Of a stretch of 56,788 nt of DNA, positions 2,790 through 35,698 are shown in pieces; the first letter of the stretch is position 1; the number at the start of each line of letters is the position of its first letter. The notes beneath the pieces were generated by a model. That model ran no database searches, was not told where the DNA came from, and was given only the letters and a program-made list of their open reading frames with translations. Origin of the DNA: an uncultured Bacilli bacterium (lineage in GTDB: Bacteria > Bacillota_I > Bacilli_A > RF39 > UBA660); contig CANQST010000004.1 of assembly GCA_947626595.1 (NCBI GenBank), positions 1 to 56,788 of the forward strand. The letters are read 5' to 3'. Made by a program: the position numbers and the translations under genes.

Positions 2790-2845
2790 TAGTCTTTTTA
2801 TTGTGTTAAACTTGCTTTTGTTCTTATGGGGAGGAGGTGTTTCTA

Positions 2846-3736
2846 TTGAAGAAAGAACAAAAGAAAAAAGAAGAAGATAAAGAAGAAAAAGAGGAGAAAG
2901 TGTATTATACTAGTAAATGTGATGGTGTCTTTAAAGCTATCTTTTGTAATGAAAATGATTTATCTTTACTAAAAGCTTTATTAGAAGATAAATTAAACAT
3001 TAAAATAGAAACTATGAAACTACTTAATAATGAATTAGTAATTGATTATGTTGGTGACAAGATTAAGCATGTTGATGCGATAGTTGAAGTTAATGATAAA
3101 ATGATAGTTAATATCGAAGTTAATGGATACTATGCAGGATGGAGAGCCTTTAGAAACTTTGTTTATTTCTGTCAAATAATAGTAAGTAGAATAGTAAATG
3201 GACAAAGTTATGATTTAAAAAATGAATTTGTCCAAATAAATTTAACATATGGCTTATCTAAGAAAAAAGAAATAGTACGTAATATAGAGTATTCAGAAAA
3301 TGTTAAAATGTTAGAATTTAATATGGACAAAATAAGAGACTTATGGTATTATAATGATGAAGAGGAAATAGAGAAGTATAAGTATCTAATAATGCAAGAT
3401 TTAGATAAGGAGCAATTAGATAAATTTTGTGAGAAATTTAAAGGAGATGATGTAATCATGACATATAGAGAGAAATTAAATAAGTTAAATGATGGAGGTT
3501 ATCATTTTTTAACTCCTGAAGAGGAAGAATTATATGAAAGAAATACATATAAAGAGATGGGAAGAGACGAAGGCTTAAAGGAAGGACTAGAACAAGGCCG
3601 TGTTGAGGGAAAAGAAGAAGGCAGAAAAGAAGAAAAAGAAGAAACAGCTAGAAATATGCTTAAAGATAAGGTTGATGTAGCTTTAATTTCTAAGTATACT
3701 AATCTACCAACATCACGTATTATGACACTATTATAA
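2846..3736 (+). CDS. Rpn-family recombination-promoting nuclease / PD-(D/E)XK putative transposase
   Basis: N-terminal CDGVFKAIF...LLKALL, then core D-x-IVEV...IVNIEVN and RNFVYFCQIIVSRIVNGQSY, which fits the PD-(D/E)XK pattern. The C-terminal tail is EG-rich (EGLKEGLEQGRVEGKEEGRKE...ARNMLKD...ISKYTNL), typical of Rpn/YhgA-like tails. TTG at 2846 sits 9 nt after GGAGG and is preferred to the GTG at 2837. Confidence 0.75.
   Translation: MKKEQKKKEEDKEEKEEKVYYTSKCDGVFKAIFCNENDLSLLKALLEDKLNIKIETMKLLNNELVIDYVGDKIKHVDAIVEVNDKMIVNIEVNGYYAGWRAFRNFVYFCQIIVSRIVNGQSYDLKNEFVQINLTYGLSKKKEIVRNIEYSENVKMLEFNMDKIRDLWYYNDEEEIEKYKYLIMQDLDKEQLDKFCEKFKGDDVIMTYREKLNKLNDGGYHFLTPEEEELYERNTYKEMGRDEGLKEGLEQGRVEGKEEGRKEEKEETARNMLKDKVDVALISKYTNLPTSRIMTLL
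3458..3736 (+). CDS. Possible internally initiated C-terminal product of the Rpn gene (92 aa)
   Basis: An in-frame ATG at 3458 is preceded by aaaggagatgatgtaatc. This is nearly the same RBS context as the free-standing duplicate gene at 3772 (aaaggaggagtgataatc). Confidence 0.35.
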   Translation: MTYREKLNKLNDGGYHFLTPEEEELYERNTYKEMGRDEGLKEGLEQGRVEGKEEGRKEEKEETARNMLKDKVDVALISKYTNLPTSRIMTLL

Positions 3737-3771
3737 ACGTAAGGGAATGGTTAAAAGGAGGAGTGATAATC

Positions 3772-4062
3772 ATGACATATAGAGAAAAATTAAATAAGTT
3801 GAATGATGGAGGTTATCATTTTTTAACTCCTGAAGAGGAAGAATTATATGAAAGAAATACATACAAAGAGATGGGAAGAGACGAAGGCTTAAAAGAAGGC
3901 TTAGAAAAAGGAATAGAACAAGGCCGTGTTGAAGGAGAGAAAAAAGGCAGAAAAGAAGAAAAAGAAGAAACAGCTAGAAATCTACTTAAGAATAATGTAG
4001 ATATAGGTATTATTTCTAAGTGTACTAACTTATCAAAAGCTCACATTATGACATTATTATAA
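3772..4062 (+). CDS. Free-standing Rpn C-terminal-tail paralogue (96 aa)
   Basis: The first 45 residues (MTYREKLNKLNDGGYHFLTPEEEELYERNTYKEMGRDEGLKEGLE) are identical to residues of the upstream Rpn ORF starting at its internal Met. Strong RBS aaaggaggag 7 nt upstream of the ATG. Confidence 0.7.
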   Translation: MTYREKLNKLNDGGYHFLTPEEEELYERNTYKEMGRDEGLKEGLEKGIEQGRVEGEKKGRKEEKEETARNLLKNNVDIGIISKCTNLSKAHIMTLL

Positions 4063-4069
4063 ATTTAAA

Positions 4070-4115
4070 AGAGCAGTTGCAGAAACAAATTACTTAATTT
4101 CTGAACTGCTCTTTT
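4070..4115. terminator. Bidirectional terminator hairpin
   Basis: agagcagttgcagaaa ... tttctgaactgctct long stem, flanked by an A-run on the left and ttttttg on the right. It lies between convergent genes and overlaps the 3' end of the XRE gene. Confidence 0.6.
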
Positions 4116-4323
4116 TTGCGTATGGTTCTTTAATATTAGTAAGTCCTAATATGTAGTCAGTACTAGTATGATAGAACTTAGCTAGAGTAATAAGGGCTTG
4201 AGTAGGTATATCAGTTTTTTCTGTTTCATAATTAGAAATAGCCTTTTGTGATATACCTGTTTTTTCATATAAATCTTTTTGTAATAAATTATTGTCTTGT
4301 CTTAAATCTCTTAATCTATTCAT
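4090..4323 (-). CDS. XRE-family HTH transcriptional regulator (cassette 1)
   Basis: LRQDNNLLQKDLYEKTGISQKAISNYETEKTDIP is a Cro/C1-type HTH. The C-terminal motif is TSTDYILGLTN. It is divergent from the fibre-like gene at 4449. Confidence 0.85.
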   Translation of the reverse strand: MNRLRDLRQDNNLLQKDLYEKTGISQKAISNYETEKTDIPTQALITLAKFYHTSTDYILGLTNIKEPYAKKSSSEIK

Positions 4324-4354
4324 ATTTACACCTCTTTCTTAAAATATTTTAATA

Positions 4355-4426
4355 TAGTCTTAATAAGTCTATTGACTTTTAGACTTAATTAGTCTATGAT
4401 ATTAGTATATAGACTTAACTAGTCTA
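4355..4426. promoter_or_regulatory. Promoter with three copies of a 17-bp palindromic operator (cassette 1)
   Basis: TAGTCTTAATAAGTCTA (4355-4371), TAGACTTAATTAGTCTA (4380-4396) and TAGACTTAACTAGTCTA (4410-4426). Promoter elements are TTGACT (4372-4377), a 17-nt spacer and TATGAT. The middle operator fills the spacer. Confidence 0.55.
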
Positions 4427-4448
4427 TAAAGTTAAGGATAGTGATAAT

Positions 4449-5243
4449 GTGAAAAGAAAAGAAATTATTATATTTATGATAATAGCAATAGTTATATCAA
4501 TTACTTTGTCCTTTTGTTTAGCAGAAACTTTAATAGAAAGTAAAAATGTTTCTTACGTAGGTAATTCTAAGTTAGGAGCGACTAATGTACAAAATGCCAT
4601 AGATGGAACTTGCACGAAGTTTAGTAATGAGTTAACTAATTTAGAAAGAACTTTGCTAGATAAGTTCTATCCCGTAGGAAGTGTTTATATATCAACAACT
4701 CTAAAGACCGCAACAGAAGTACAAAATAGTTTTGGTGGCACTTGGGTCTCATATGGAATAGGAAAAACATTATTAAGTAGTACAACAAGCGAACAAACAG
4801 GAGGTTCAAATACTGTAACTTTAACAACAGATAATCTTCCTGCTCATACTCATAATTATGATAAAGTTAATTCCAATACAGGTTCTCATACTTTGACAAT
4901 AGCAGAAATGCCAAGTCATTCTCATGGTTTTACAAGTCCTGGGGAAGAAGTGATAACTTTTGGTGGTGCTGAAAGTACAAATGGTATGAATGCAGCAGCT
5001 GGTTTTGTTGCTGTTGTGTGTCCACAAGGTGTTTGTCCTAGCAATTTTAGTTCGGCTTATAATTGGTTTAGGGGAGCTGAAAAGAGTATGGGAAAAATTG
5101 GCACAACTGGAAATGATGGAGGACATACACATACTATTTCAACTACATCAAGTAAAACAAGTTCGGCAGGTTCAACTAATCCTACTGCTATCAATGTCCA
5201 AAATCCTTATATAACTGTTTATATGTATAAACGAACTAAGTAA
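4449..5243 (+). CDS. Signal/TM-anchored tail-fibre-like HxH-motif protein, paralogue 1
   Basis: GTG start. N-terminal hydrophobic leader (IIIFMIIAIVISITLSFCLA), then YPVGSVYIS...FGGTW and three HxH motifs (LPAHTHNY, MPSHSHGF, GGHTHTI). The C-terminus (STNPTAINVQNPYITVYMYKRT) is shared with the ORFs at 25300 and 33263. Confidence 0.75.
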   Translation: MKRKEIIIFMIIAIVISITLSFCLAETLIESKNVSYVGNSKLGATNVQNAIDGTCTKFSNELTNLERTLLDKFYPVGSVYISTTLKTATEVQNSFGGTWVSYGIGKTLLSSTTSEQTGGSNTVTLTTDNLPAHTHNYDKVNSNTGSHTLTIAEMPSHSHGFTSPGEEVITFGGAESTNGMNAAAGFVAVVCPQGVCPSNFSSAYNWFRGAEKSMGKIGTTGNDGGHTHTISTTSSKTSSAGSTNPTAINVQNPYITVYMYKRTK

Positions 5244-22648: not shown

Positions 22649-24124
22649 ATGTTATTTAAAAAGAAAAGTAAAAGTAATATGCCTGTTCAAGATAATGAAA
22701 TAACTACTAGTTCTACTTTATTAGATACTGCTCCTGTTACTAATAATGTTAGTGTTAATAATAGTAATGTAGGAAATAATTCTGTTAATGCTAATGGTTC
22801 AAAACCTTTAGTTAATATGACTAATTCAAATAATTTACAAAGTACTGATAATCAAGATAGTGATTTAATTAATAGTATGACTTCTAGTGCTAATTTAAAC
22901 AAAAAAGTAGATCGTCCTATTAAAAGATTTCATTATATAATTATTAATACTATGGGTAAGAAGGAACAAGGAAATTTTGATGCTGAGTCTGCAGATGATG
23001 TTAGAAATTTCTTGTTATCTCAAGAGTATCAAGTTTTAGAAGTAAAAGAAAGATCTAAGTATGATATTGATTTAGGTGGAAATGGACGTATAAAGACTTC
23101 TGATTTAGCTTTTTGTTTGACACAGTTATCTACTTATATTAAGTCTGGTATTCCACTAGCTGATTCTGTTAAGATACTTGCTAAACAAACAAGTAAGTCT
23201 AGTATGAAGAAAAGCTTTAATGAACTTGTTTATGAGTTATTAAGAGGTGAAAGCTTATCTTCAGCTATGGAGAAACAGAATAATACTTATCCTAAGTTAC
23301 TAATTAATATGATAAAAACGGCTGAAATGACTGGTGATTTACCTACTATTTTGGACGATATGGCTGATTATTATACGGCTATGGATCAGACTAGAAAACA
23401 AATGAAAAGTGCTATGACATATCCATTGGTTGTTTTAACGATTGCTTTTGCTGTATTGATATTTATGCTTACTTACTTAGTTCCACAGTTTGCAACGATG
23501 TTTGAAGCTAATAATGCTGAACTTCCTGCTTTAACATTAACTATCTTGGCGATAAGTGATTTTATTAAGGCATATTGGTATATATTACTTATATGTATAT
23601 TAGTAGTTACAGTGACTTTTGTTTATACATTTAAAAAAGTACAGAAGTTTAGGCTGATGGTTCAAACGATGCTCATGCATATTCCTGTAGTTAAGAATGT
23701 TATTATATATAATGAAGTTGCGAACTTTACAAAGACATTTGCTTCTTTAATAAATCATGGTGTTTTTATTACTGATAGTATGGAGATTTTATCTAAAATT
23801 ACTAATAATGAAGTATATAAAGGTATTATTGATAAATGCTTAACTAATTTAGCTAAGGGGGATTCTATTTCTACAGCTTTTAAGGGTGAGTGGGCTGTTC
23901 CTATTGTTGCTTATGAAATGATAGTTACAGGTGAGACGACTGGACAACTTGGTACTATGATGGAAAAAGTTGCGGCACATTTTCAAATGTTACATAAAAA
24001 TATTATAGATCAAATGAAGAGTTTGGTAGAGCCACTTTTAATATGTTTCTTAGCAGTAGTTGTTGGTATTATTCTTATGTCAATAATTCAACCAATGTTT
24101 GCTATATATGAACAAGTTCAATAA
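22649..24124 (+). CDS. pilC: Type II secretion/type IV pilus platform protein (GspF/PilC family) with an N/S/T-rich N-terminal extension
   Basis: Two GspF repeats (LAFCLTQLSTYIKSGIPLADSVKILA..., FTKTFASLINHGVFITDSMEILS...) and three TM segments. The first ~95 residues are low-complexity. Confidence 0.85.
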   Translation: MLFKKKSKSNMPVQDNEITTSSTLLDTAPVTNNVSVNNSNVGNNSVNANGSKPLVNMTNSNNLQSTDNQDSDLINSMTSSANLNKKVDRPIKRFHYIIINTMGKKEQGNFDAESADDVRNFLLSQEYQVLEVKERSKYDIDLGGNGRIKTSDLAFCLTQLSTYIKSGIPLADSVKILAKQTSKSSMKKSFNELVYELLRGESLSSAMEKQNNTYPKLLINMIKTAEMTGDLPTILDDMADYYTAMDQTRKQMKSAMTYPLVVLTIAFAVLIFMLTYLVPQFATMFEANNAELPALTLTILAISDFIKAYWYILLICILVVTVTFVYTFKKVQKFRLMVQTMLMHIPVVKNVIIYNEVANFTKTFASLINHGVFITDSMEILSKITNNEVYKGIIDKCLTNLAKGDSISTAFKGEWAVPIVAYEMIVTGETTGQLGTMMEKVAAHFQMLHKNIIDQMKSLVEPLLICFLAVVVGIILMSIIQPMFAIYEQVQ

Positions 24125-24135
24125 GGAGGGTAATT

Positions 24136-24900
24136 ATGATGATTTTATACTTAATTATCTTCTTTCTTTTTGGAACATGTTTTGGTTCTTTTTTTACGGT
24201 AATTGGATTAAGACTTCCAAAAAATATTTCTTTCTTAAAAGGAAAATCACACTGTGATAAGTGTAATCATGATTTAGGACTTATTGATATGGTACCAGTA
24301 TTATCATTTATCTTTCTAAAAGGAAAGTGTCGTTATTGCCATGAAAAAATAAGCTCTTTATCTACTTATATGGAATTATTTACGGGAATACTTTTTGCTT
24401 TAGCTTACTATTCTTTTGGGTTTTCTTATTCTTTATTAATAGCTTTAGGTATTATAAGTATGCTTATTATTGTAACTGTTAGTGATATGAATTACTTAAT
24501 TATACCAGATCAGGTTCTTGTCTTTTTTAGTATTTATTTTATTGCTATTAAGATGCTTGATGGAGGAATAAAAGAGGCAGTTTTATGTGTTTTATCAGGT
24601 ATTTTCTTATTTATAATAATGTATGTTATTATGCTAATAGGAAGCAAGATTTTTAAAAGAGAGGCTCTTGGTGGGGGAGACATTAAAATGATGTTTGTCT
24701 TTGGATTAGTTCTTCCCCCTTTACTAGGCGTTATATCGATATTTTTAGGTAGTTGTTTAGCTTTGCCTGTATCTTTATATATTTTGACCAGAAAGAAGGA
24801 AAGAATTGTTCCTTTTGGGCCTTTTCTTTTATTAGCGCTTACTCTTTTGTATTTTACTAAGATAACGCCTGATATTATACTTAGTATATTAAGAAGTTAG
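24136..24900 (+). CDS. pilD: Prepilin peptidase (A24 family)
   Basis: N-terminal Cys motif CDKCNH...CRYC, polytopic membrane body and the catalytic-type motif GGGDIKMM. Confidence 0.85.
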   Translation: MMILYLIIFFLFGTCFGSFFTVIGLRLPKNISFLKGKSHCDKCNHDLGLIDMVPVLSFIFLKGKCRYCHEKISSLSTYMELFTGILFALAYYSFGFSYSLLIALGIISMLIIVTVSDMNYLIIPDQVLVFFSIYFIAIKMLDGGIKEAVLCVLSGIFLFIIMYVIMLIGSKIFKREALGGGDIKMMFVFGLVLPPLLGVISIFLGSCLALPVSLYILTRKKERIVPFGPFLLLALTLLYFTKITPDIILSILRS

Positions 24901-24968: not shown

Positions 24969-25184
24969 TTATTTTTTTCTAGGATATGGGTCTTTAACAT
25001 TAGTAAGGCCTAATATATAGTCAATACTAGTTTTATAATATATAGCTAGTTTTTTTAAGCCATCATAAGATAATTGATATATACCTTGTTCTATTCTTGA
25101 ATAATGAGCTTGGGTAATACCAAGAATATCTGCAACTTCCTTTTGTAATAAGTCATTGTCTTCTCTTAAATCTTTTATTCTCAT
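24969..25184 (-). CDS. XRE-family HTH transcriptional regulator (cassette 2)
   Basis: LREDNDLLQKEVADILGITQAHYSRIEQG is the HTH. The C-terminal motif is TSIDYILGLTN. The ATG at 25184 follows aggtgattgta; the GTG at 25193 in the ORF track lies inside that RBS. Confidence 0.85.
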   Translation of the reverse strand: MRIKDLREDNDLLQKEVADILGITQAHYSRIEQGIYQLSYDGLKKLAIYYKTSIDYILGLTNVKDPYPRKK

Positions 25185-25227
25185 TACAATCACCTAAAGA
25201 TATTTTATAATATTTGATAAAAAGATA

Positions 25228-25281
25228 TTGACTTTTATGTGCATTACGTATATATTTATATTAGTATACGTAATACGTATA
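25228..25281. promoter_or_regulatory. Promoter and TACGTA-type palindromic operator (cassette 2)
   Basis: TTGACT (25228-25233), a 17-nt spacer and TATATT. There is a perfect 17-bp palindrome TATACGTAATACGTATA (25265-25281) and a TACGTATA half-site at 25245-25252 overlapping the -10. Confidence 0.55.
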
Positions 25282-25299
25282 TATAATAGAGGTGATATC

Positions 25300-26028
25300 A
25301 TGAAGAATAGTAAGATAATAGTAGGGGTAGTAATTGGAATAGTTATATCAATTACTTTATCTTTTTGTCTAGCAGAAACTTTAATAGAAAGTAAAAATGT
25401 TTCTTATGTAGATAACAGTGCAGTAGGAGCAATTAATGTACAAAATGCCATAGATGGAACTTGTACTAAGTTTAGTAATGAATTACAAAACTTTCTCTTA
25501 AAAGTATACCCCGTAGGAAGTATTTATATATCAACAACTTTAAAAACTCCAAGTGAAGTACAAAATAGTTTTGGTGGTACTTGGGTTTCATATGGAGTAG
25601 GAAAAACATTATTAAGTAGTACAACAAGTGAACAAACTGGAGGTTCAAACACGGTAACTCTGACAACAGCTAATCTACCAGCACATACTCATAATTATGA
25701 TAAAGTAAATGCTAATACAGGTTCACATGTTTTAACTATAGCGGAGATGCCAGCACATCCAGGACATATATATGAAGCTGGAGGAAGTGGTGGCTGGTAT
25801 GTACCAGCAGCATATCAAACAACTACTTCATTTTCTAATAGAAGATGGATAGTTCATAGAGCTAACGAGCTTTATCCTGATAGCACTTCTTATGGTAATA
25901 ATGAAGGCCACACTCATTCAATCTCAACTACCTCAACCGCAACAAGTTCGGCAGGTTCTACTAATCCTACCGCTATTAATGTCCAAAATGAATATATAAC
26001 TGTCTATATGTACAAAAGAACTAATTAG
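25300..26028 (+). CDS. Signal/TM-anchored tail-fibre-like HxH-motif protein, paralogue 2
   Basis: The ATG at 25300 follows agaggtgatatc. It has the same leader, YPVGSIYIS...FGGTW, LPAHTHNY, MPAHPGH, EGHTHSI and shared C-terminus as the 4449 and 33263 ORFs. The 24-codon upstream extension in the ORF track runs through the promoter. Confidence 0.8.
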   Translation: MKNSKIIVGVVIGIVISITLSFCLAETLIESKNVSYVDNSAVGAINVQNAIDGTCTKFSNELQNFLLKVYPVGSIYISTTLKTPSEVQNSFGGTWVSYGVGKTLLSSTTSEQTGGSNTVTLTTANLPAHTHNYDKVNANTGSHVLTIAEMPAHPGHIYEAGGSGGWYVPAAYQTTTSFSNRRWIVHRANELYPDSTSYGNNEGHTHSISTTSTATSSAGSTNPTAINVQNEYITVYMYKRTN

Positions 26029-26040
26029 ATTATAAATAAA

Positions 26041-26075
26041 AATAATCGGGTATTTAACTCGATTATTTCTTTTTC
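26041..26075. terminator. Bidirectional terminator hairpin
   Basis: aataatcg ... cgattatt forms an 8-bp stem followed by tctttttc. It lies between convergent genes. Confidence 0.5.
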
Positions 26076-26290
26076 TTTGGGTAAGCTTCTTTTTCATTAG
26101 TTCTACCCAAGATATAGTCTGTACTTGTATTATAGAAAGTTGCTAAAGTATCAAGCTTGTCAATTGGTAGTAATCTTATTCCAAGTTCATATTCACTATA
26201 TTGTTGTTGAGATATCTTTAATAGTTTAGCAATATCTTTTTGATACAAGTCTTTATCTTGCCTTAAATCTTTTAACCTATTAATATTCAT
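26063..26290 (-). CDS. XRE-family HTH transcriptional regulator (cassette 3)
   Basis: LRQDKDLYQKDIAKLLKISQQQYSEYELG is the HTH. The C-terminal motif is TSTDYILGRTN. The ATG at 26290 follows gaggagaattt. Confidence 0.85.
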   Translation of the reverse strand: MNINRLKDLRQDKDLYQKDIAKLLKISQQQYSEYELGIRLLPIDKLDTLATFYNTSTDYILGRTNEKEAYPKKKK

Positions 26291-26338
26291 AAATTCTCCT
26301 CTCTTTCTACTATTTTCATACATAAAATATTATGTGCG

Positions 26339-26395
26339 TTGACAATACATGAAATTTCATGTATAATTTAATTGTATACATAATATTTCATGTAT
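26339..26395. promoter_or_regulatory. Promoter and 20-bp palindromic operator pair (cassette 3)
   Basis: TTGACA (26339-26344), a 17-nt spacer and TATAAT (26362-26367). A perfect palindrome ATACATGAAATTTCATGTAT (26345-26364) fills the spacer. A second near-copy ATACATAATATTTCATGTAT lies at 26376-26395. Confidence 0.6.
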
Positions 26396-26450
26396 ATAAA
26401 TTTAAATATTATTATTTAAATTATGCAAATGAAATGTAGAGAGGGTAATT

Positions 26451-29114
26451 ATGAAATATCTAAATAAAGTATTATTAAGCTCTGTAGTTGTCATAGTATT
26501 AGTAATGAGTGTAGGTTATTCTGTTTTAAATAAAGAGTTAAGTATAACAGGTGAAGTTAATTATAGACCACAAGGAGATATGAGAATTACTAATGTTAAA
26601 CAAGAAGATATTAGTAATGCTAATATTGAGTATTTTGATTTTTCTAGAAAAGAAATTAAATTAGCTTATAGTAGTAATGGGAATGCTTTTCTAAAGTTTA
26701 CAGTAGAAGTAACTAATTATAGTAATACTGAAATGGGTATTTTAAAAATAGATGGATTAGATGGTGGCGTAGTAGAGGGCTATACTTTTGGTGAGAAGTT
26801 AGTAGGAGAAGATAATAATAGTAAGGCTGGTATGACTAAAGAGTTTACTATTACTTATAACTCAAGTGAAGTTGAAACAAAAAGTTTATTATTAAAGTTT
26901 GACTTTGAAGAAGTCTTTACTATTAATTATGAAGGATTTGATAATACTCAAGACTTTAAGAAAGAGATATTAAACAATGATAAATTAGTTCAAAACTTAG
27001 GAGATGATCCTCCTAGGAAAATAGAAGTTACTATGAATGATAAAGTAATAACACCTAATTATAGTAATGGAACATTAACAATTAATCAAGTAACAGGTAA
27101 TATAAAAGTAAAATCTTTATTTTATGACGATAGTGGAGCAAATGAACCAGTACTTAGTGATGGAATGATACCAGTATATTATGATGAGAATGATAAAGAA
27201 TGGAAGAAAGCTGATAGATACAATAGAAATAATAATTGGTGTGATTATAATAATCAGAAGTGGTGTAATGCGGTTACAGTAAAGAATGTTGTTAGAGATT
27301 TATCTGGTAATGGAAATGATGGTGAGATACATGGAGCTGTTGTGAATGACGGTAAAGCTTATTTTGATGGAGTTGACGATTACATAGATGCTGGGTTAAA
27401 AAAATATGATTTTAAGCAAGTTACCTATGTAGCTAAATTTACTTTGCATTCTTACAGCAATACTAATCAAACTATTATGGGTAATACTGATACTGGTGGC
27501 TTATCTTTATCATTTTTGCCAAAAACAAATAAATTGCTTACATTTGGCTTATATAATTTAAATACTGGTTCTTATGTTTACTTGTCAAGTTCTTCTAGTG
27601 AAATAGAATTGGAAAAAGAATATGTTGCGGTTGGAACATATGATGGTAATAGTATTAAGCTGTATCTCAATGGTGTTTTAGTTGCGGAAAACAATACTCA
27701 AATTAATTTTAAAACTTCTAACTCTAATACTTTAATATGCTCAGAACCTCAAGGGGATACAGATTTTTCTGAAATGTCAAATGCAACAATAAATGATGCT
27801 TTAATATTTGATAAAGCCTTGAGTGAGGCTGAAATTAAGCAGCATTATAGTAATGAAGTTACTTTAGGAGAAACAAAACCATTAGTCTATTATAATTTTG
27901 AAGAAACAAGTAGAACTCCTTATGTACATGGTAGTGTTGGAACAGCAATACCAATTGAAGAAATAAATACCATGTGGGTATGGATACCAAGATATAGTTA
28001 TACTATAAAGAGTGAAGATGGAGGAGATAACTATTTTGGTAAAGCAAGTTCTGATAATTCAAATCCATCACAAGCTTTACCAGGAGAGATAGATATTAGA
28101 TTTATTTCTCAGACTTCTAAAGATACAGGTAGTGCTAGATATATAGGTAGTGATATTAATGGGTGGTTTACGCCACCAGGATTTAAATTTGGAGATAAAG
28201 ATTTATCAGGAGTATGGATAGGTAAGTTTGAAGTAGCAGGAAGTTTAGCGAAAGATAGTCAGGCTTGTAAAAATGAAAGGTGTTATGTTAGCAAAGTGAC
28301 TATAAAGCCAAATGTTGCATCAATTAGAAGTCAAACAGTTAGTAGTTTCTTCTATATGGCAAGAAGCTTTCAAAAGGCAGATAGTGGTTATAATGAAGCT
28401 GTTTTTGATTTACATATGGCTAAAAACGAGGAATGGTCACTTATTTCTTATTTAACACAAAGCAAATATGGTAAGTATGGTAATGATAATTATACAGGTG
28501 CTAATAAAGAAGTATATCAAAATAAATCAAGTGATTTTATAACAGGTAATAGTAACTGGACACCCAGTCAAGACGAAAGCACCACAGATCAGTATTCTTA
28601 TAATGATATGACGAATTTGAATGATGGTAGGGGATTTGCTGGTCCAGGTGCCTCAACAACTGGAAATATTTATGGTATTTATGATATAAGTGGTGGAGCT
28701 AATGAATATGTTATGGGAGTGCTAGAGTATGACGAACAAGGTAATGATACTCACAGTGGCATGATAGTTAGTAATACTTCTAATTTTATAGGGCTTAATA
28801 AAGAAGGTACAGAAACTGGAACACTGGCTTTACCAGCTTCTAAATATTATAAAGTATATAAAAGTATTAATCCTACTTCAGCAAATCGTGTTAGTGCTGA
28901 AACGGCTTGTGATGGTGGCATATGTTATGGACATGCATTTACTGAGACTGCTGAATGGTATGGTGATTACCCCTATTTCTTATCTCGTACTTATCCATGG
29001 CTACAGCGTGGTGGTTATAATAGTTATGGTAAAGTTGCCGGCATATTTTACTCTCATTATCAATCTGGTGGTCTTGATGCTAGGGCAACTACTAGATTAG
29101 TTCTAACTCCATAA
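26451..29114 (+). CDS. Large secreted/anchored protein with a LamG (concanavalin-like) domain and a C-terminal FGE-sulfatase/C-lectin-like region
   Basis: N-terminal hydrophobic anchor (VLLSSVVVIVLVMSVGYSVL). LamG_3-type motifs are DLSGNGNDGEIHGAVVNDGKAYFDGVDDYIDAG and LYLNGVLV...DALIFDKALSEAEIKQHY. The C-terminal GIYGIYDISGGANEYVMG resembles the G-x-YDMSGNVWEW motif of the FGE-sulfatase family. Confidence 0.7.
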   Translation: MKYLNKVLLSSVVVIVLVMSVGYSVLNKELSITGEVNYRPQGDMRITNVKQEDISNANIEYFDFSRKEIKLAYSSNGNAFLKFTVEVTNYSNTEMGILKIDGLDGGVVEGYTFGEKLVGEDNNSKAGMTKEFTITYNSSEVETKSLLLKFDFEEVFTINYEGFDNTQDFKKEILNNDKLVQNLGDDPPRKIEVTMNDKVITPNYSNGTLTINQVTGNIKVKSLFYDDSGANEPVLSDGMIPVYYDENDKEWKKADRYNRNNNWCDYNNQKWCNAVTVKNVVRDLSGNGNDGEIHGAVVNDGKAYFDGVDDYIDAGLKKYDFKQVTYVAKFTLHSYSNTNQTIMGNTDTGGLSLSFLPKTNKLLTFGLYNLNTGSYVYLSSSSSEIELEKEYVAVGTYDGNSIKLYLNGVLVAENNTQINFKTSNSNTLICSEPQGDTDFSEMSNATINDALIFDKALSEAEIKQHYSNEVTLGETKPLVYYNFEETSRTPYVHGSVGTAIPIEEINTMWVWIPRYSYTIKSEDGGDNYFGKASSDNSNPSQALPGEIDIRFISQTSKDTGSARYIGSDINGWFTPPGFKFGDKDLSGVWIGKFEVAGSLAKDSQACKNERCYVSKVTIKPNVASIRSQTVSSFFYMARSFQKADSGYNEAVFDLHMAKNEEWSLISYLTQSKYGKYGNDNYTGANKEVYQNKSSDFITGNSNWTPSQDESTTDQYSYNDMTNLNDGRGFAGPGASTTGNIYGIYDISGGANEYVMGVLEYDEQGNDTHSGMIVSNTSNFIGLNKEGTETGTLALPASKYYKVYKSINPTSANRVSAETACDGGICYGHAFTETAEWYGDYPYFLSRTYPWLQRGGYNSYGKVAGIFYSHYQSGGLDARATTRLVLTP

Positions 29115-32193: not shown

Positions 32194-33228
32194 ATGAATG
32201 TAGAAGATATACGTATTAAGAGTTTAAAACAGACTTTAGATAGTAAAATTAAAGAAAGTGATAGTGTTACAATAGTGCCTCATATTAGATTAGATTTTGA
32301 TGCGATTGGATCTAGTATTGCTTTATATATAATGGCATTGAGGCAGAGAAAACGAGTAAATATATTGATAAATGATAATTACAATGAATTAGATTGTGGC
32401 ATTAAAACTGTTTTAAAGGAAATAACTACTAAAGGATTTAATATTATTAATTATAATGAGTATAAAGATAGATATGCTAATAGTAATGATTTATTAATAT
32501 TAACTGATACTTCACAACAAACTCTTATTCCTATTGAAGAAGATATTATTAAGAAGAAAGTTCTAGAAGAAAAGATAATTGAAATAGACCATCATAATTA
32601 TGGTAATTCAACGATAGATGCCAAGGATAAGTTTATCTTGCCTGAATATTCTAGTGCTTGTGAAATTATTACTAAAATGCTTTTTACTTCACGTGTTAGA
32701 TTTAGTAAAGAGATTGCGACTTATCTTTATGCTGGAATATGGTTAGATAGTAATAGATTGACTAAAAGAGGATCTAATAATGAGACACATAAATGGGCTG
32801 GTAAATTAGTTGAGAATAATGCTGATATTGATAAAGTAAATGATTTATTTATAGAAGATTATAATGATAATCAAAAAATTCAAGAATTAGTTTCTAATCA
32901 TATGAAAATGTTTAGTTATACTATTGCTTGTTTAATTGGTGAAGACGATAAGAAATATAGTTGTGAAGATCTGGCTAAGGCTGCAGATGCGTGTTTAAAG
33001 TATCGAATAGATGCATCTTTTGCGATAGGTAATGTATCTGATAGTATGGTGTCAATAAGCGCTCGTAGTAAAGGCAATATTAACGTTGGAGAAATAATGA
33101 AAGAATTTGATGGTGGTGGTAACTATTTAGCGGCCGCAACTAAAATAAAAGACGAAAAACCTAGTGAAGTAAGCAAAAAATTAATGAAAGCTTTAAGACC
33201 TAATTATTATATTGATAAAGAAAATTAA
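32194..33228 (+). CDS. DHH/DHHA1-family phosphoesterase (NrnA-like)
   Basis: HIRLDFDAIGSS, EIDHHNYG (DHH motif) and C-terminal FDGGGNYLAAA (a GGGH-type DHHA1 motif with N in place of H). Confidence 0.7.
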   Translation: MNVEDIRIKSLKQTLDSKIKESDSVTIVPHIRLDFDAIGSSIALYIMALRQRKRVNILINDNYNELDCGIKTVLKEITTKGFNIINYNEYKDRYANSNDLLILTDTSQQTLIPIEEDIIKKKVLEEKIIEIDHHNYGNSTIDAKDKFILPEYSSACEIITKMLFTSRVRFSKEIATYLYAGIWLDSNRLTKRGSNNETHKWAGKLVENNADIDKVNDLFIEDYNDNQKIQELVSNHMKMFSYTIACLIGEDDKKYSCEDLAKAADACLKYRIDASFAIGNVSDSMVSISARSKGNINVGEIMKEFDGGGNYLAAATKIKDEKPSEVSKKLMKALRPNYYIDKEN

Positions 33229-33232
33229 TTGA

Positions 33233-33263
33233 CGAGTTATGCTTTAATAACTCGCCAATTTTT
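33233..33263. terminator. Bidirectional terminator hairpin
   Basis: cgagttat-gcttta-ataactcg followed by ccaatttttt. It lies between convergent genes. Confidence 0.55.
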
Positions 33264-34018
33264 TAAGCTTTTCTTCGATACATGAAAACGGTTACATATG
33301 GATCTTGAACATTGATAGCTGTAGGATTAGTAGAACCTGCCGAACTTGTTGCGGTTGAGGTAGTTGAGATTGGGTGGGTGTGTCCTCCCCCACCTCCATA
33401 ATTTGTGCTGGCTGGGTATAGCTCATTTCCCTCATATACTACCCATCCCCTTTTTGCATAATATTGTGGTTCTGCTTGTTTGGCAATTGTTTTTGATAAA
33501 TACAAATAATTTTCTTCTCCTCCATATCTTTCTACATGTCCTGGATGTGATGGCATCTCTGCTATCGTTAAGGTATGGGAACCGGTATTAGCATTTGCTT
33601 TATCATAATTGTGAGTGTGAGCTGGTAGATTAGCTGTTGTTAGTGTTACGGTGTTTGCTCCTCCTGTTGTACCTGATTTGGATGTTGTTCCTCTTAATAC
33701 TTTATCCGTTCCATATGTCTCCCAAGTACCACCAAACTTATTTTGAACTTGTTCTACGGTAGATAATTCAGTTGATATATAAATGCTACCTACTGGATAT
33801 ATCTCATTTATTATTTGCTTCTTTAAATTAATTAAATCATTACTAAACTTAGTACAAGTTCCATCTATGGCATTTTGTACATTAGTCGCTCCTAATTTAG
33901 AATTATCTACATAAGAAACATTTTTACTTTCTATTAAAGTTTCTGCTAGACAAAAAGATAAAGTAATTGATATAACTATTCCAATTACTACCCCTACTAT
34001 TATCTTACTATTCTTCAT
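33263..34018 (-). CDS. Signal/TM-anchored tail-fibre-like HxH-motif protein, paralogue 3
   Basis: The first 40 residues are identical to paralogue 2. It has YPVGSIYIS...FGGTWE, LPAHTHNY, MPSHPGH, GGHTHPI and the shared C-terminus STNPTAINVQDPYVTVFMYRR. Confidence 0.8.
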   Translation of the reverse strand: MKNSKIIVGVVIGIVISITLSFCLAETLIESKNVSYVDNSKLGATNVQNAIDGTCTKFSNDLINLKKQIINEIYPVGSIYISTELSTVEQVQNKFGGTWETYGTDKVLRGTTSKSGTTGGANTVTLTTANLPAHTHNYDKANANTGSHTLTIAEMPSHPGHVERYGGEENYLYLSKTIAKQAEPQYYAKRGWVVYEGNELYPASTNYGGGGGHTHPISTTSTATSSAGSTNPTAINVQDPYVTVFMYRRKA

Positions 34019-34045
34019 GATATCACCTCTATATTACGACCTTTG

Positions 34046-34145
34046 TGTCATAATAAAAGTATAAACCATTATGACATATAAGTCAATATAATATTATGAC
34101 TTTTAAGACATACAATTTTTATTAAAAATATGACATTATTGTCAT
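34046..34145. promoter_or_regulatory. Divergent control region with TTATGACA-type half-sites and palindromes (cassette 4)
   Basis: TGTCATAAT (34046-34054) and ATTATGACA (34068-34076) form an inverted repeat. ATTATGAC recurs at 34093-34100. A perfect 16-bp palindrome ATGACATTATTGTCAT lies at 34130-34145, just upstream of the XRE gene RBS. Confidence 0.5.
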
Positions 34146-34156
34146 GAGGTGATAAT

Positions 34157-34348
34157 ATGTTAAAAGAATATAGACTAAAAAGAGGTTATAGTTTAGAAAA
34201 ATTAGCAGAATTAACTAATATATCATGGCGTAATTTACAAAGAATTGAAAATGGTAAAGATAAGGATGCTAAGTTTGAAACGATAAGAAAATTAATTCAA
34301 GTATTAGAAATAGAAGATAAAGATATACTTGATTATATTAAGAATTAA
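34157..34348 (+). CDS. Short XRE-family HTH regulator (cassette 4, different subfamily)
   Basis: YRLKRGYSLEKLAELTNISWRNLQRIENGK is the HTH. It lacks the TSxDYILG tail of the other three regulators. Confidence 0.8.
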   Translation: MLKEYRLKRGYSLEKLAELTNISWRNLQRIENGKDKDAKFETIRKLIQVLEIEDKDILDYIKN

Positions 34349-34358
34349 GGAGAAGTTT

Positions 34359-34877
34359 ATGATGTTGATATTTTACTTTATATCTGCAATAGGGATAATA
34401 TATCTAATTATTTCTATTTGTAGGTATGTAGTTAATTTTTTAAATTTTAAAGAAGAAAGAAGAAATGATACTGAAAAAACTAAACCGAGTACTAGTTATT
34501 ATCAGAAAAGCTTTATGAGTGCTGCTGAAAAGAATTTTTATAATATCTTAAGAGAATTAGAAACTAAATATAAGATAGTACCTCAAGTTAATTTAGCTAG
34601 TATTATTAGTAAGAATAATTATACTTTTCAAAATGAATTATTTAGAAATATTGATTTTGCGATATTTACTTATGATTATTCTAAACTATTACTTTTAATT
34701 GAGTTAAATGATAGTACTCATAATATGGCAAAGAGAAGGAAAAGAGATATGAAAGTACAAGCTATTTTAAATGATGCTGGTATACCTTTAATGAAGTTTT
34801 ATACTAATAAGCCTAATGAAAGAAATTATGTACTTAATAGAATTTTAAATAAAATTGAAAAAGATATAGGCAACTAA
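34359..34877 (+). CDS. DUF2726-like (PD-(D/E)XK-fold) protein with an N-terminal TM helix
   Basis: The ATG at 34359 lies 11 nt after the XRE stop codon and follows aaggagaag. AEKNFYNILRE...IVPQVNLASI...IDFAIF...LLLIELNDSTH...RRKRDMKVQAILNDAGIPLMKF matches the DUF2726 pattern as I recall it. Confidence 0.6.
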   Translation: MMLIFYFISAIGIIYLIISICRYVVNFLNFKEERRNDTEKTKPSTSYYQKSFMSAAEKNFYNILRELETKYKIVPQVNLASIISKNNYTFQNELFRNIDFAIFTYDYSKLLLLIELNDSTHNMAKRRKRDMKVQAILNDAGIPLMKFYTNKPNERNYVLNRILNKIEKDIGN

Positions 34878-34930
34878 TATTATGTATGAATATACATGTT
34901 AAAAGAGTAACTTTCCGTTACCCTTTTCTT

Positions 34931-35698
34931 TTAGACTTTTCTTGATTGTATCTCAGCTATTTTTTCAAATACTTCTTTAGCATTATCTTCATTTATTTCG
35001 GTATAACCTAGCTCTCTTAGAGCTTGAACTTTTACGGTATTAAGCTCTTGAGTACGAGATAGTTTTTCTTCTTTTTTCTGCTCAATATTTTGAACAAATC
35101 TTTTATGAGACTCGCTTAGTTTGTTTTTAGAAGCTCCTCCATTATTATAAAGGGTCATAGCACTAAAGATAATACTTTCAAATATAAATTGTTTATCTTT
35201 ATCAAAATTAAATTCCATTGGATCAGTAAATCCTAAAGATTTAGACATATAAGCTAAAATATACTTTAATTCGTCTGTTGTTTCCATTGACTGTAGGAAG
35301 TGATATAAGTATAAGAAAGTTGTATATGACTCTTTAGTTTTGTCGTTAGCAAGTTTTTCTTTTAAGATATTAATTATATCAGATAGTAATTCTTGTTCTT
35401 TTTTATTAAAGCCTTTTAAATCAGCCAATATTTCTTTACTAGAGATATCTTTTACACCATCATTAAGTCTATTTTCAACTTCAATTATATATTCACCGGT
35501 AATTTTAACTTTGCTTAATTCTCCTATACTTTCAATATTAAGTAAGCTAAGTAGTTTAGCAGCTTTTTCTTTAGGCCAGTCATTAATATCAGATAAAGCT
35601 AAATAATTATATAGCATTTGTCTTGATACTCCTAAGTATTTAGCTAGACGTACTTTGCTAATTCCTAATTCGGCTAATGTTTTGTTTAATTCTTTCAT
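34931..35698 (-). CDS. HTH-domain protein, unknown function
   Basis: The N-terminal LAELGISKVRLAKYLGVSRQMLYNYL is HTH-like. The rest is helical with no recognised family. Confidence 0.5.
   Translation of the reverse strand: MKELNKTLAELGISKVRLAKYLGVSRQMLYNYLALSDINDWPKEKAAKLLSLLNIESIGELSKVKITGEYIIEVENRLNDGVKDISSKEILADLKGFNKKEQELLSDIINILKEKLANDKTKESYTTFLYLYHFLQSMETTDELKYILAYMSKSLGFTDPMEFNFDKDKQFIFESIIFSAMTLYNNGGASKNKLSESHKRFVQNIEQKKEEKLSRTQELNTVKVQALRELGYTEINEDNAKEVFEKIAEIQSRKV

Follow-up and report, generated by a model that had tools for sequence, protein, structure and literature searches.

The window analysed here, a stretch of 56,788 nucleotides (nt) on contig CANQST010000004.1 of an uncultured Bacilli bacterium, carries three copies of a gene which, with a probability of roughly 55%, belong to an individually switched, recombining and lineage-specific family of exported, presumably trimeric, fibre-tip-like binding proteins. 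Copy 1 was found at 4449-5243 on the forward strand (GTG start, 264 amino acids (aa)), copy 2 at 25300-26028 on the forward strand (ATG start, 242 aa), and copy 3 at 33263-34018 on the reverse strand (251 aa), each exactly where the first-pass annotation of this DNA had placed its open reading frame (ORF). For copy 2 there is a longer alternative ORF, starting with TTG at 25228, which opens on the first base of the predicted -35 hexamer; because this ORF runs through the predicted promoter, the ATG at 25300 is the preferred start of copy 2. Identity to copy 1 is 72% for copy 2 and 63% for copy 3, and the corresponding expectation (E) values for paralogy against chance are 5.5e-90 and 2.4e-83.

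As had been noticed in the first-pass annotation, conserved flanks surround a variable centre. In the three copies the leader, residues 1 to ~157 and the last ~40 residues are conserved, and the motifs YPVGS(V/I)YIS, FGGTW, LPAHTHNY and GGHTH are common to all of them. The variable centres lie at 25753-25939 in copy 2, at 33353-33550 (reverse strand) in copy 3, and at 4920-5127 in copy 1, where this part presumably forms a distal ligand-binding tip. The centre of copy 1 could not be aligned with those of copies 2 and 3, which are patchily related to each other (36% identity over 50 residues). The same partition was found among 116 relatives, where mean pairwise identity fell from 51% in the N region to 9% in the centre and rose again to 47% in the C region. 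Centres measured 27 to 93 residues, and in 63 pairs the N regions were at least 85% identical and the centres at most 25%. The centre cassette of copy 1 was shared with one relative only (P0002, 76%). Local BLAST of the three window centres retrieved one to four relatives each, and no match was obtained against the viral loci.

At the DNA level, alignment columns 61-150 show 95-100% identity between copies 2 and 3, which also have exact matches of 130 nt at the 5' end and 52 nt 3' of the centre. Copies 1 and 3 are 95% identical over columns 151-240. In columns 301-420 copies 1 and 2 agree at ~90%, while the identity of copy 3 to each of them is 58-68%. The three copies are thus mosaic, indicating recombination between them, and the shared flanks would be long enough for homologous exchange of the centres. 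The exchangeable middles that had been proposed are therefore supported both by the hypervariability of the centre and by the mosaic copies. A silent-cassette mechanism was rejected for the window, where a second copy or template repeat of any centre is absent. A diversity-generating retroelement was also rejected, as the window holds no template repeat and no reverse transcriptase was present among the neighbours scanned with Pfam.

To which proteins the family is related was clear from profile comparisons. The Pfam domain PF21939 (Gp10_C) matched all three copies at 57-64 bits against a cut-off of 27 (E values of 2.9e-17, 6.7e-15 and 2.4e-15 for copies 1, 2 and 3) and was present in all 120 listed relatives. 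A 44-member family profile aligned with the C-terminal domain of T4 gp10 (PDB 2FKK) at an E value of 3e-15; this alignment covers the neck S.DV...NV.A and the motifs YPxGxIY, GxW and TGGS..VTL..NLPA, and resumes at the C-terminal strand QPYITVY..R. When full-length T4 gp10 was used in hhalign, a probability of 98.3% and an E value of 1.3e-14 were obtained. The equivalent parts of copy 1 are a neck helix at residues ~47-73, the collar motifs YPVGSVYIS and FGGTW, and a C-terminal strand with the sequence PYITVYMYKRTK. Matches in PHROGs were located at the extreme C-termini of long phage tail and tail-fibre proteins and cover the C-terminal part of the family, while no NCBIfam model matched it. 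The tail-collar profile PF07484 did not match at E <= 0.01, and no gp12 chain appeared in the PDB profile search at E <= 10. Because the match to the gp10 profile is strong and the comparisons with gp12 and gp11 were negative, the family is by sequence to be grouped with gp10 and not with gp12. Hence, of the tail-fibre-like domain first proposed, the homology to phage baseplate and fibre-tip domains stands (PF21939, 2FKK, PHROGs), but the nearest relative is gp10 instead of gp12 or gp37. By its homology to gp10, the product would be expected to form an intertwined trimer.

In T4 gp12 and gp37, histidines of histidine-x-histidine (HxH) motifs from three chains hold Zn or Fe. Comparing the sequences by eye, gp12 TGGYVGEVQIQQMSYHKHAG parallels TGGSNTVTLTTDNLPAHTHNY of the family, and the first motif, HxH1, follows the TGG motif as the HKH of gp12 does, whose His445 and His447 bind Zn. 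Among the relatives, HxH1 was present in 116 of 116 and HxH3 in 112 of 116, and HxH2 in ~80%. In copy 1 the motifs are encoded at 4845-4853, 4917-4925 and 5124-5132. The trio of motifs reported earlier is complete in this copy, but the second site of copies 2 and 3 is MPxHPGH, an HxxH motif, so that only copy 1 has three strict HxH. From motif position only, a metal site analogous to those of gp12 and gp37 may be inferred; the AlphaFold2 monomer models were too poor in the centre to show metal sites. The whole HxH region also aligned, with an E value of 7e-7, with the long tail fibre gp34 of Anabaena phage A-1(L), PDB 8KEC (PMC10966104).

The first-pass annotation had considered these proteins anchored in the cell envelope, which we now find doubtful, since the leader has the features of a cleaved Sec signal peptide and no other anchor motif is present. 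In the 115-116 relatives evaluated, the leader has a median length of 29 aa, with 20 uncharged residues and a net charge of +3 in the n-region, and ends in S-Y-[A/V/C]-L-A, followed by E-T-L-I. Position -1 is Ala in 101 of 116 (87%), and position -3 is A, V, C, T or S in 114 of 116 (98%). Because its length, charge and -3/-1 residues fit the pattern of signal peptidase I (SPase I), export with cleavage of a Sec signal peptide is likelier than permanent anchoring; in copy 1 the signal peptide would comprise residues 1-25 (4449-4523, forward strand). Lipobox, LPXTG and prepilin motifs were sought in the sequences and none was found. A lipoprotein or a sortase substrate was rejected, given the lack of a lipobox and a C-terminus that is PYITVYMYKRTK and not LPXTG; Cys occupies position -3 in only 19 of 116 relatives, outside a lipobox context. 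A type IV pilin was rejected too, as the hydrophobic segment precedes the conserved Ala-Glu and does not follow it.

It is somewhat unlikely, with domain and regulation remaining the same, that the hydrophobic N-terminus is left uncleaved and the trimer is tethered to the cytoplasmic membrane by three helices. Most members do have an uncharged stretch of 19-24 residues, residues 3-28 form an uninterrupted helix in the AlphaFold2 model, and, as the protein has no other retention motif, a tether would explain how a variable antigen stays on the cell. However, the 87% of Ala at -1, the 98% of small residues at -3 and the acidic +1 make up an SPase I pattern that would have no evident use in a plain anchor, and a stalk of ~45 residues is short beside a typical Gram-positive wall. 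Genes for a PilC-like protein (T2SS-F) and a prepilin peptidase (A24), at 22649-24900, immediately precede the copy 2 module. No gene for a secretion ATPase or a pilin turned up beside them, although no scan was aimed at these. A functional link between the family and the pilC/prepilin peptidase pair was not found, as the leader is not of the prepilin type.

In a 90% cluster database, 548 relatives were retrieved at E <= 1e-3. The 120 listed relatives measure 177-304 aa, most of them ~220-300, and none is named by any source; in a 50% representative library 5055 proteins match the wider superfamily, only 27 of them below 1e-30. Among 185,579 species-representative genomes, 207 stretches encode relatives. 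The best 79 of these 207 loci sit in nine metagenome-assembled genomes (MAGs), eight of them labelled uncultured Bacilli (rabbit, human gut), with at least 29 loci in one rabbit MAG, at least 17 in another and at least 14 in a Hadza MAG. Tandem arrays of two or three copies occur. A contig labelled Muribaculaceae (CAZEVZ010000060.1, L075) contains two family copies. Its GC content is 30.6%, and its tetranucleotide composition correlates with that of the window at 0.936; it was probably misbinned, comes from Bacilli and does not place the family in Bacteroidota. Topic-directed literature searches yielded no paper describing a cellular family of this kind.

The genes are chromosomal in their surroundings. 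In long contigs the neighbours are housekeeping genes (trpS, glmS, polC, truB, hrcA/grpE, recX, ftsK, queA), and no phage structural gene was observed near any of the ~90 loci inspected or among the scanned neighbours in the window. The window itself has a G+C content of 27%, chromosomal in character, and encodes spoIIGA/sigE-like, tgt, pilC-like and prepilin peptidase genes, two tRNAs, a phosphopentomutase-like metalloenzyme and xerD-like, DHH-family and PNPase-like genes. In 2.9 million viral contigs and 50,697 GenBank phage records no close relative was detected: viral matches reached at most 47% identity over ~70-residue stretches and at most ~33% where most of the domain was matched, most of those in viral contigs begin at residue ~40-70 and thus lack the leader region, and the GenBank phages gave weak matches only, to Streptococcus prophages. 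A host-encoded family is thereby supported as first proposed, and the survey of genome contexts, which would have spoken against it had these genes always lain in prophage tail modules, placed them outside such modules. That they are remnants of prophage tail fibres or parts of a cryptic tailocin can be effectively excluded. The domain family is otherwise known from phage baseplates and fibres, but the context described above, at least 29 loci and tandem arrays in one MAG, promoters and regulators belonging to the genes themselves, and predicted signal peptides, which are foreign to virion proteins, all argue against phage debris, as does the absence of close relatives from the viral collections.

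Since the nearest relatives outside the family are the distal ends of phage tail and tail-fibre proteins, the products could also be thought of as anti-phage decoys or receptor masks, that is, secreted tips that cover the phage receptors of the cell itself (e.g. wall glycopolymers), block adsorption and diversify together with the phages. A hypervariable tip, a multigene repertoire and phase-variable promoters would fit such an arms race. Nevertheless, no PADLOC defence model matched the family, no phage with a matching tip cassette was present in the viral contigs or GenBank phages, and the proposal is purely conceptual; we consider it quite unlikely. A role as targeting modules in inter-bacterial antagonism, as bacteriocin- or lectin-like proteins that bind the surfaces of competitors, seems very unlikely. 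Predicted export, a variable domain of the receptor-binding type and the many alleles would agree with it, but neither a toxin domain nor an adjacent immunity gene is present, the genes form monocistronic units bordered by terminators or convergent housekeeping genes, and the ~220-residue protein is wholly accounted for by the gp10-like domain.

In the window, every copy has a divergent regulator gene of the XRE/HTH_3 type. These are located at 4090-4323 (reverse strand, 77 aa; HTH_3 E value 1.1e-11) for copy 1, at 24969-25193 (reverse strand, 74 aa; 4.7e-13) for copy 2, and at 34157-34348 (forward strand, 63 aa, of a different XRE subtype; 1.2e-10) for copy 3. In the control regions between regulator and family gene (4324-4448, 25194-25299 and 34019-34156, respectively), a promoter-like sequence TTGACT-17-TATxxT occupies the same relative position: TTGACT-17-TATGAT at 4372-4400, TTGACT-17-TATATT at 25228-25256, and TTGACT-17-TATACT at 34086-34058 on the reverse strand. 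Each module has two to four palindromes of its own kind, 25-60 bp apart (mostly 25-34 bp). In copy 1, approximately TAGACTTAAnTAGTCTA is present three times (4354-4372, 4380-4397 and 4409-4427), upstream of, inside and downstream of the promoter spacer; in copy 2, the palindromes TATGTGCATTACGTATA (25236-25252) and TATACGTAATACGTATA (25265-25281) are of one type; and in copy 3, three to four palindromes of the TATGAC..GTCATA type are found between 34031 and 34146. Palindromes on and around a promoter spacer have the anatomy of private repressor-operator pairs, which suggests that each regulator may bind and repress its own module. All window copies are monocistronic and followed by a terminator or a convergent gene, with terminator-like hairpins 3' of copy 2 (26040-26068, forward strand) and 3' of copy 3 (33227-33260, reverse strand). 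Control by a repressor, as it had been proposed for the family, is therefore consistent with all three window copies, each with its XRE gene and palindromes, but among the 64 relatives evaluated below only 20 have a divergent XRE gene.

A fourth module of the same design, with an unrelated cargo, was observed at 26063-29114. Its XRE gene (26063-26323, reverse strand) belongs to the subtype present in the modules of copies 1 and 2. A control region (26324-26450) separates it from an ORF on the forward strand (26451-29114), whose 887-aa product begins with a hydrophobic leader and contains a LamG/ConA-like domain (PF13385, E value 1.5e-14). The promoter of this module is a perfect TTGACA-17-TATAAT at 26339-26367, accompanied by two 21-bp palindromes, ATACATGAAATTTCATGTATA, at 26345-26365 and 26376-26396. 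This suggests that private XRE switches could be a general device for exported proteins in this organism.

In the relatives, a second type of control element was encountered, which most copies in the sister genomes have instead of an XRE module. Many of the MAG contigs end in a run of G shortly before a family gene. G/C homopolymers of 8 nt or longer number 63 in the 571,830 nt of related loci, whose GC content was 26-30% where it was checked, whereas base composition would predict an estimated ~0.2. A family ORF follows 52 of these runs at a distance of no more than 330 nt, with the run on its coding strand. The remaining 11 have at minimum the -35 hexamer and the poly-G tract in common with the 52, and in nine of them the tract runs straight into a -10-like hexamer. 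From 5' to 3', the elements are TTGACA or TTGATT, 8-10 nt, G9-12, and TATAAT or TATTAT, with spacers of 17-20 nt (mode 19) and with G9-12 in all but one of the contig-internal tracts. One locus has a plain 17-nt spacer that lacks the G tract. Where the upstream region was visible, a G tract of at least 7 nt preceded 55 of 95 family ORFs and was missing in 40 of 95; in a set of 64 copies with a visible upstream region, a divergent XRE gene was present in 20, and 15 followed another copy.

When the same locus, encoding an identical protein, was compared across samples, tract lengths differed between G9 and G11 (P0032), G10 and G11 (P0102), and G10 and G9 (P0057), while a fourth locus (P0091) was invariant at G9; thus, three of four loci vary, with near-identical flanks. 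Provisionally, such differences may be taken as the signature of slipped-strand phase variation. The tracts also explain why MAG contigs of this lineage break repeatedly. The sample that yielded the window contains another contig, with 8.0x versus 7.2x coverage, 27.3% GC and a tetranucleotide correlation of r = 0.985 with the window, which carries a poly-G-type copy. The window organism probably uses both the XRE and the poly-G mode. A sequencing artefact was rejected as the origin of the tracts, as 48 of them are contig-internal, come from several independent studies and always stand between the same -35 and -10 elements. An invertible promoter was also rejected, since the contig breaks fall in the poly-G tracts and the inverted repeats of the window are short and operator-sized.

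In the MAG CANQIM, a conserved leader of ~150 nt follows the poly-G promoters (e.g. L002 1-190, L039 110-360, L047 110-320). It includes a short upstream ORF with its own Shine-Dalgarno-like sequence (e.g. MNSKLCKILIFIIIFF followed by the stop), located before the ribosome-binding site of the family gene, which could encode a leader peptide or be what remains of a recombined signal peptide. In loci of the human-gut lineage, TTGATT, the -35 hexamer, doubles as the 3' arm of a terminator-like hairpin of the upstream gene (aatcaagca...tgcttgatt), so that, as predicted from these motifs, the terminator and the phase-variable promoter are fused. This arrangement was seen in L160 and L161 (9874-10000) and in many Hadza-type loci (L018, L052, L056, L069).

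We propose the following model. The family would be a chromosomal, monocistronic multigene family of uncultured low-GC gut Bacilli, and each member would be exported by Sec as a mature product of ~220 residues, in essence the trimeric C-terminal collar/head domain of T4 gp10 standing alone. A short helical neck with NVQxAIDGTC would precede the gp10-like domain, and the variable insertion bracketed by HxH motifs would enlarge it, as in the tips of long phage fibres. Three chains would assemble into an intertwined trimer, with the HxH histidines lining metal sites on the threefold axis and the hypervariable centre forming the distal ligand-binding face. The ligand would most likely be a glycan or surface polymer, carried by the host, by other microbes or by the cell itself. 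Homologous recombination through the conserved 5' and 3' coding flanks would let paralogues swap their centres. In the window, a dedicated divergent XRE repressor probably binds module-specific palindromes that overlap the promoter, whereas at sister loci, and probably also elsewhere in this genome, the G9-G12 tract would slip in length and alter the spacing between -35 and -10. A population would thereby have at its disposal a changeable set of exported recognition or antigen proteins.

Several observations weigh against this model. The comparison with T4 gp12 gave an hhalign probability of only 0.5%, and that with gp11 was negative too. T4 gp10, in turn, is devoid of HxH motifs and has no histidines after NLPA (NLPATETDEE...). 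The AlphaFold2 monomer models were low to moderate in confidence: the predicted local distance difference test (pLDDT) score was 62.5 with 44 sequences and 72.5 with 117 sequences, and below 50 in the centre. The top five Foldseek hits were all gp10, yet with a template modelling score (TM-score) of 0.22, a value that would be expected for a single chain of an intertwined trimer. Cleavage of the leader is deduced from residue statistics, and its 20-residue uncharged stretch could anchor the protein in the membrane. A wall-anchoring motif, usual in a Gram-positive adhesin, is lacking in the protein. Regarding phase variation, the assembled poly-G spacers are mostly 19-20 nt long, the differences in tract length come from assemblies of low coverage (~2-7x), in which homopolymer length is error-prone, and no G/C run of at least 7 nt is present in the window, so that the evidence for this mode comes from the relatives only.

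Most of what is known about contingency loci and antigenic variation comes from pathogens, among them Neisseria, Haemophilus, Mycoplasma and Borrelia, and from the invertible promoters of Bacteroides. If our interpretation is true, a family switched by homopolymers and repressors would extend contingency biology to uncultured commensal Bacilli of the gut, and phage receptor-binding domains would have a new fate as exported cellular proteins. The family would also constitute a natural library of compact, presumably trimeric binding scaffolds of ~220 residues with exchangeable tips. We further speculate, although we regard it as unlikely in its entirety, that the receptor-binding tip of a phage fibre has been domesticated as a secreted, recombining and phase-switched repertoire with dozens of alleles per genome, each switched individually through a poly-G promoter tract or a private XRE gene. 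Such a repertoire would be the first contingency-locus system described for this lineage and might mask the phage receptors of the cell itself or evade immunoglobulin A while binding host or microbial glycans.

Some features were observed next to the modules. Immediately upstream of the copy 1 module there is a gene of the PD-(D/E)XK transposase family (PDDEXK_2, Rpn-like; 2837-3736), and behind this gene a 99-aa ORF (3763-4062) repeats the C-terminal third of its product. Where copy 1 is present in contigs of other samples, these contigs end ~555-610 nt upstream of copy 1, inside the duplicated segment. A gene for a membrane protein with DUF2726 (restriction-endonuclease-like), within 34329-35698, overlaps the 3' end of the copy 3 XRE gene by 20 nt, and convergent to it is a gene for a 255-aa HTH-like protein that has no Pfam match.

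Among known proteins, the C-terminal domain of T4 gp10 (PF21939; 2FKK, 5IV5) is homologous to the family over the neck S.DV...NV.A, the motifs YP(V/I)G(S/T)IY, G(G)xW and TGGS..VTL..NLPA, and the strand (I)QPYITVY..R. However, gp10 is a virion protein of 602 residues, encoded in the baseplate gene cluster, in which the domain makes up the last 200 residues and which has neither a signal peptide nor HxH, whereas the family consists of the domain alone, with predicted export and an HxH-flanked hypervariable insertion, and is multicopy in a bacterial chromosome. With the HxH fibre tips of gp12, gp37 and A-1(L) gp34 the family shares an HxH after a TGG..L..LP segment and a chain that leaves and returns to the collar, so that the tip is encoded in the middle of the gene; unlike the family, these are long fibres attached to the virion, and gp12 and gp11 have no profile similarity to it. 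Bacterial "phage tail collar" proteins (PF07484, COG4675 MdpB type) are small cellular derivatives of gp12-type collars, often with several paralogues, and they do not have the leader, the NVQxAIDGTC neck, the HxH insertion or the control elements of the family.

Phase-variable surface proteins offer the closest parallel in regulation. The vlp genes of Mycoplasma hyorhinis have a poly-A tract in the promoter spacer, and Neisseria porA and opc have poly-G and poly-C, respectively. In the vlhA family of Mycoplasma gallisepticum, full-length genes each have their own promoter, governed by an upstream repeat (PMC4534519). The family described here differs from vlhA, vlp, porA and opc in having the fold of a phage fibre tip and not that of a lipoprotein or porin, in belonging to uncultured commensal Bacilli of the gut, and in that some members, all three window copies among them, have an XRE gene of their own in place of a repeat tract. 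Like them, it comprises many full-length paralogues with their own promoters, and in relatives a homopolymer of varying length stands between -35 and -10; as in phase-variable surface families, conserved coding ends surround a variable region and recombination appears to take place between paralogues.

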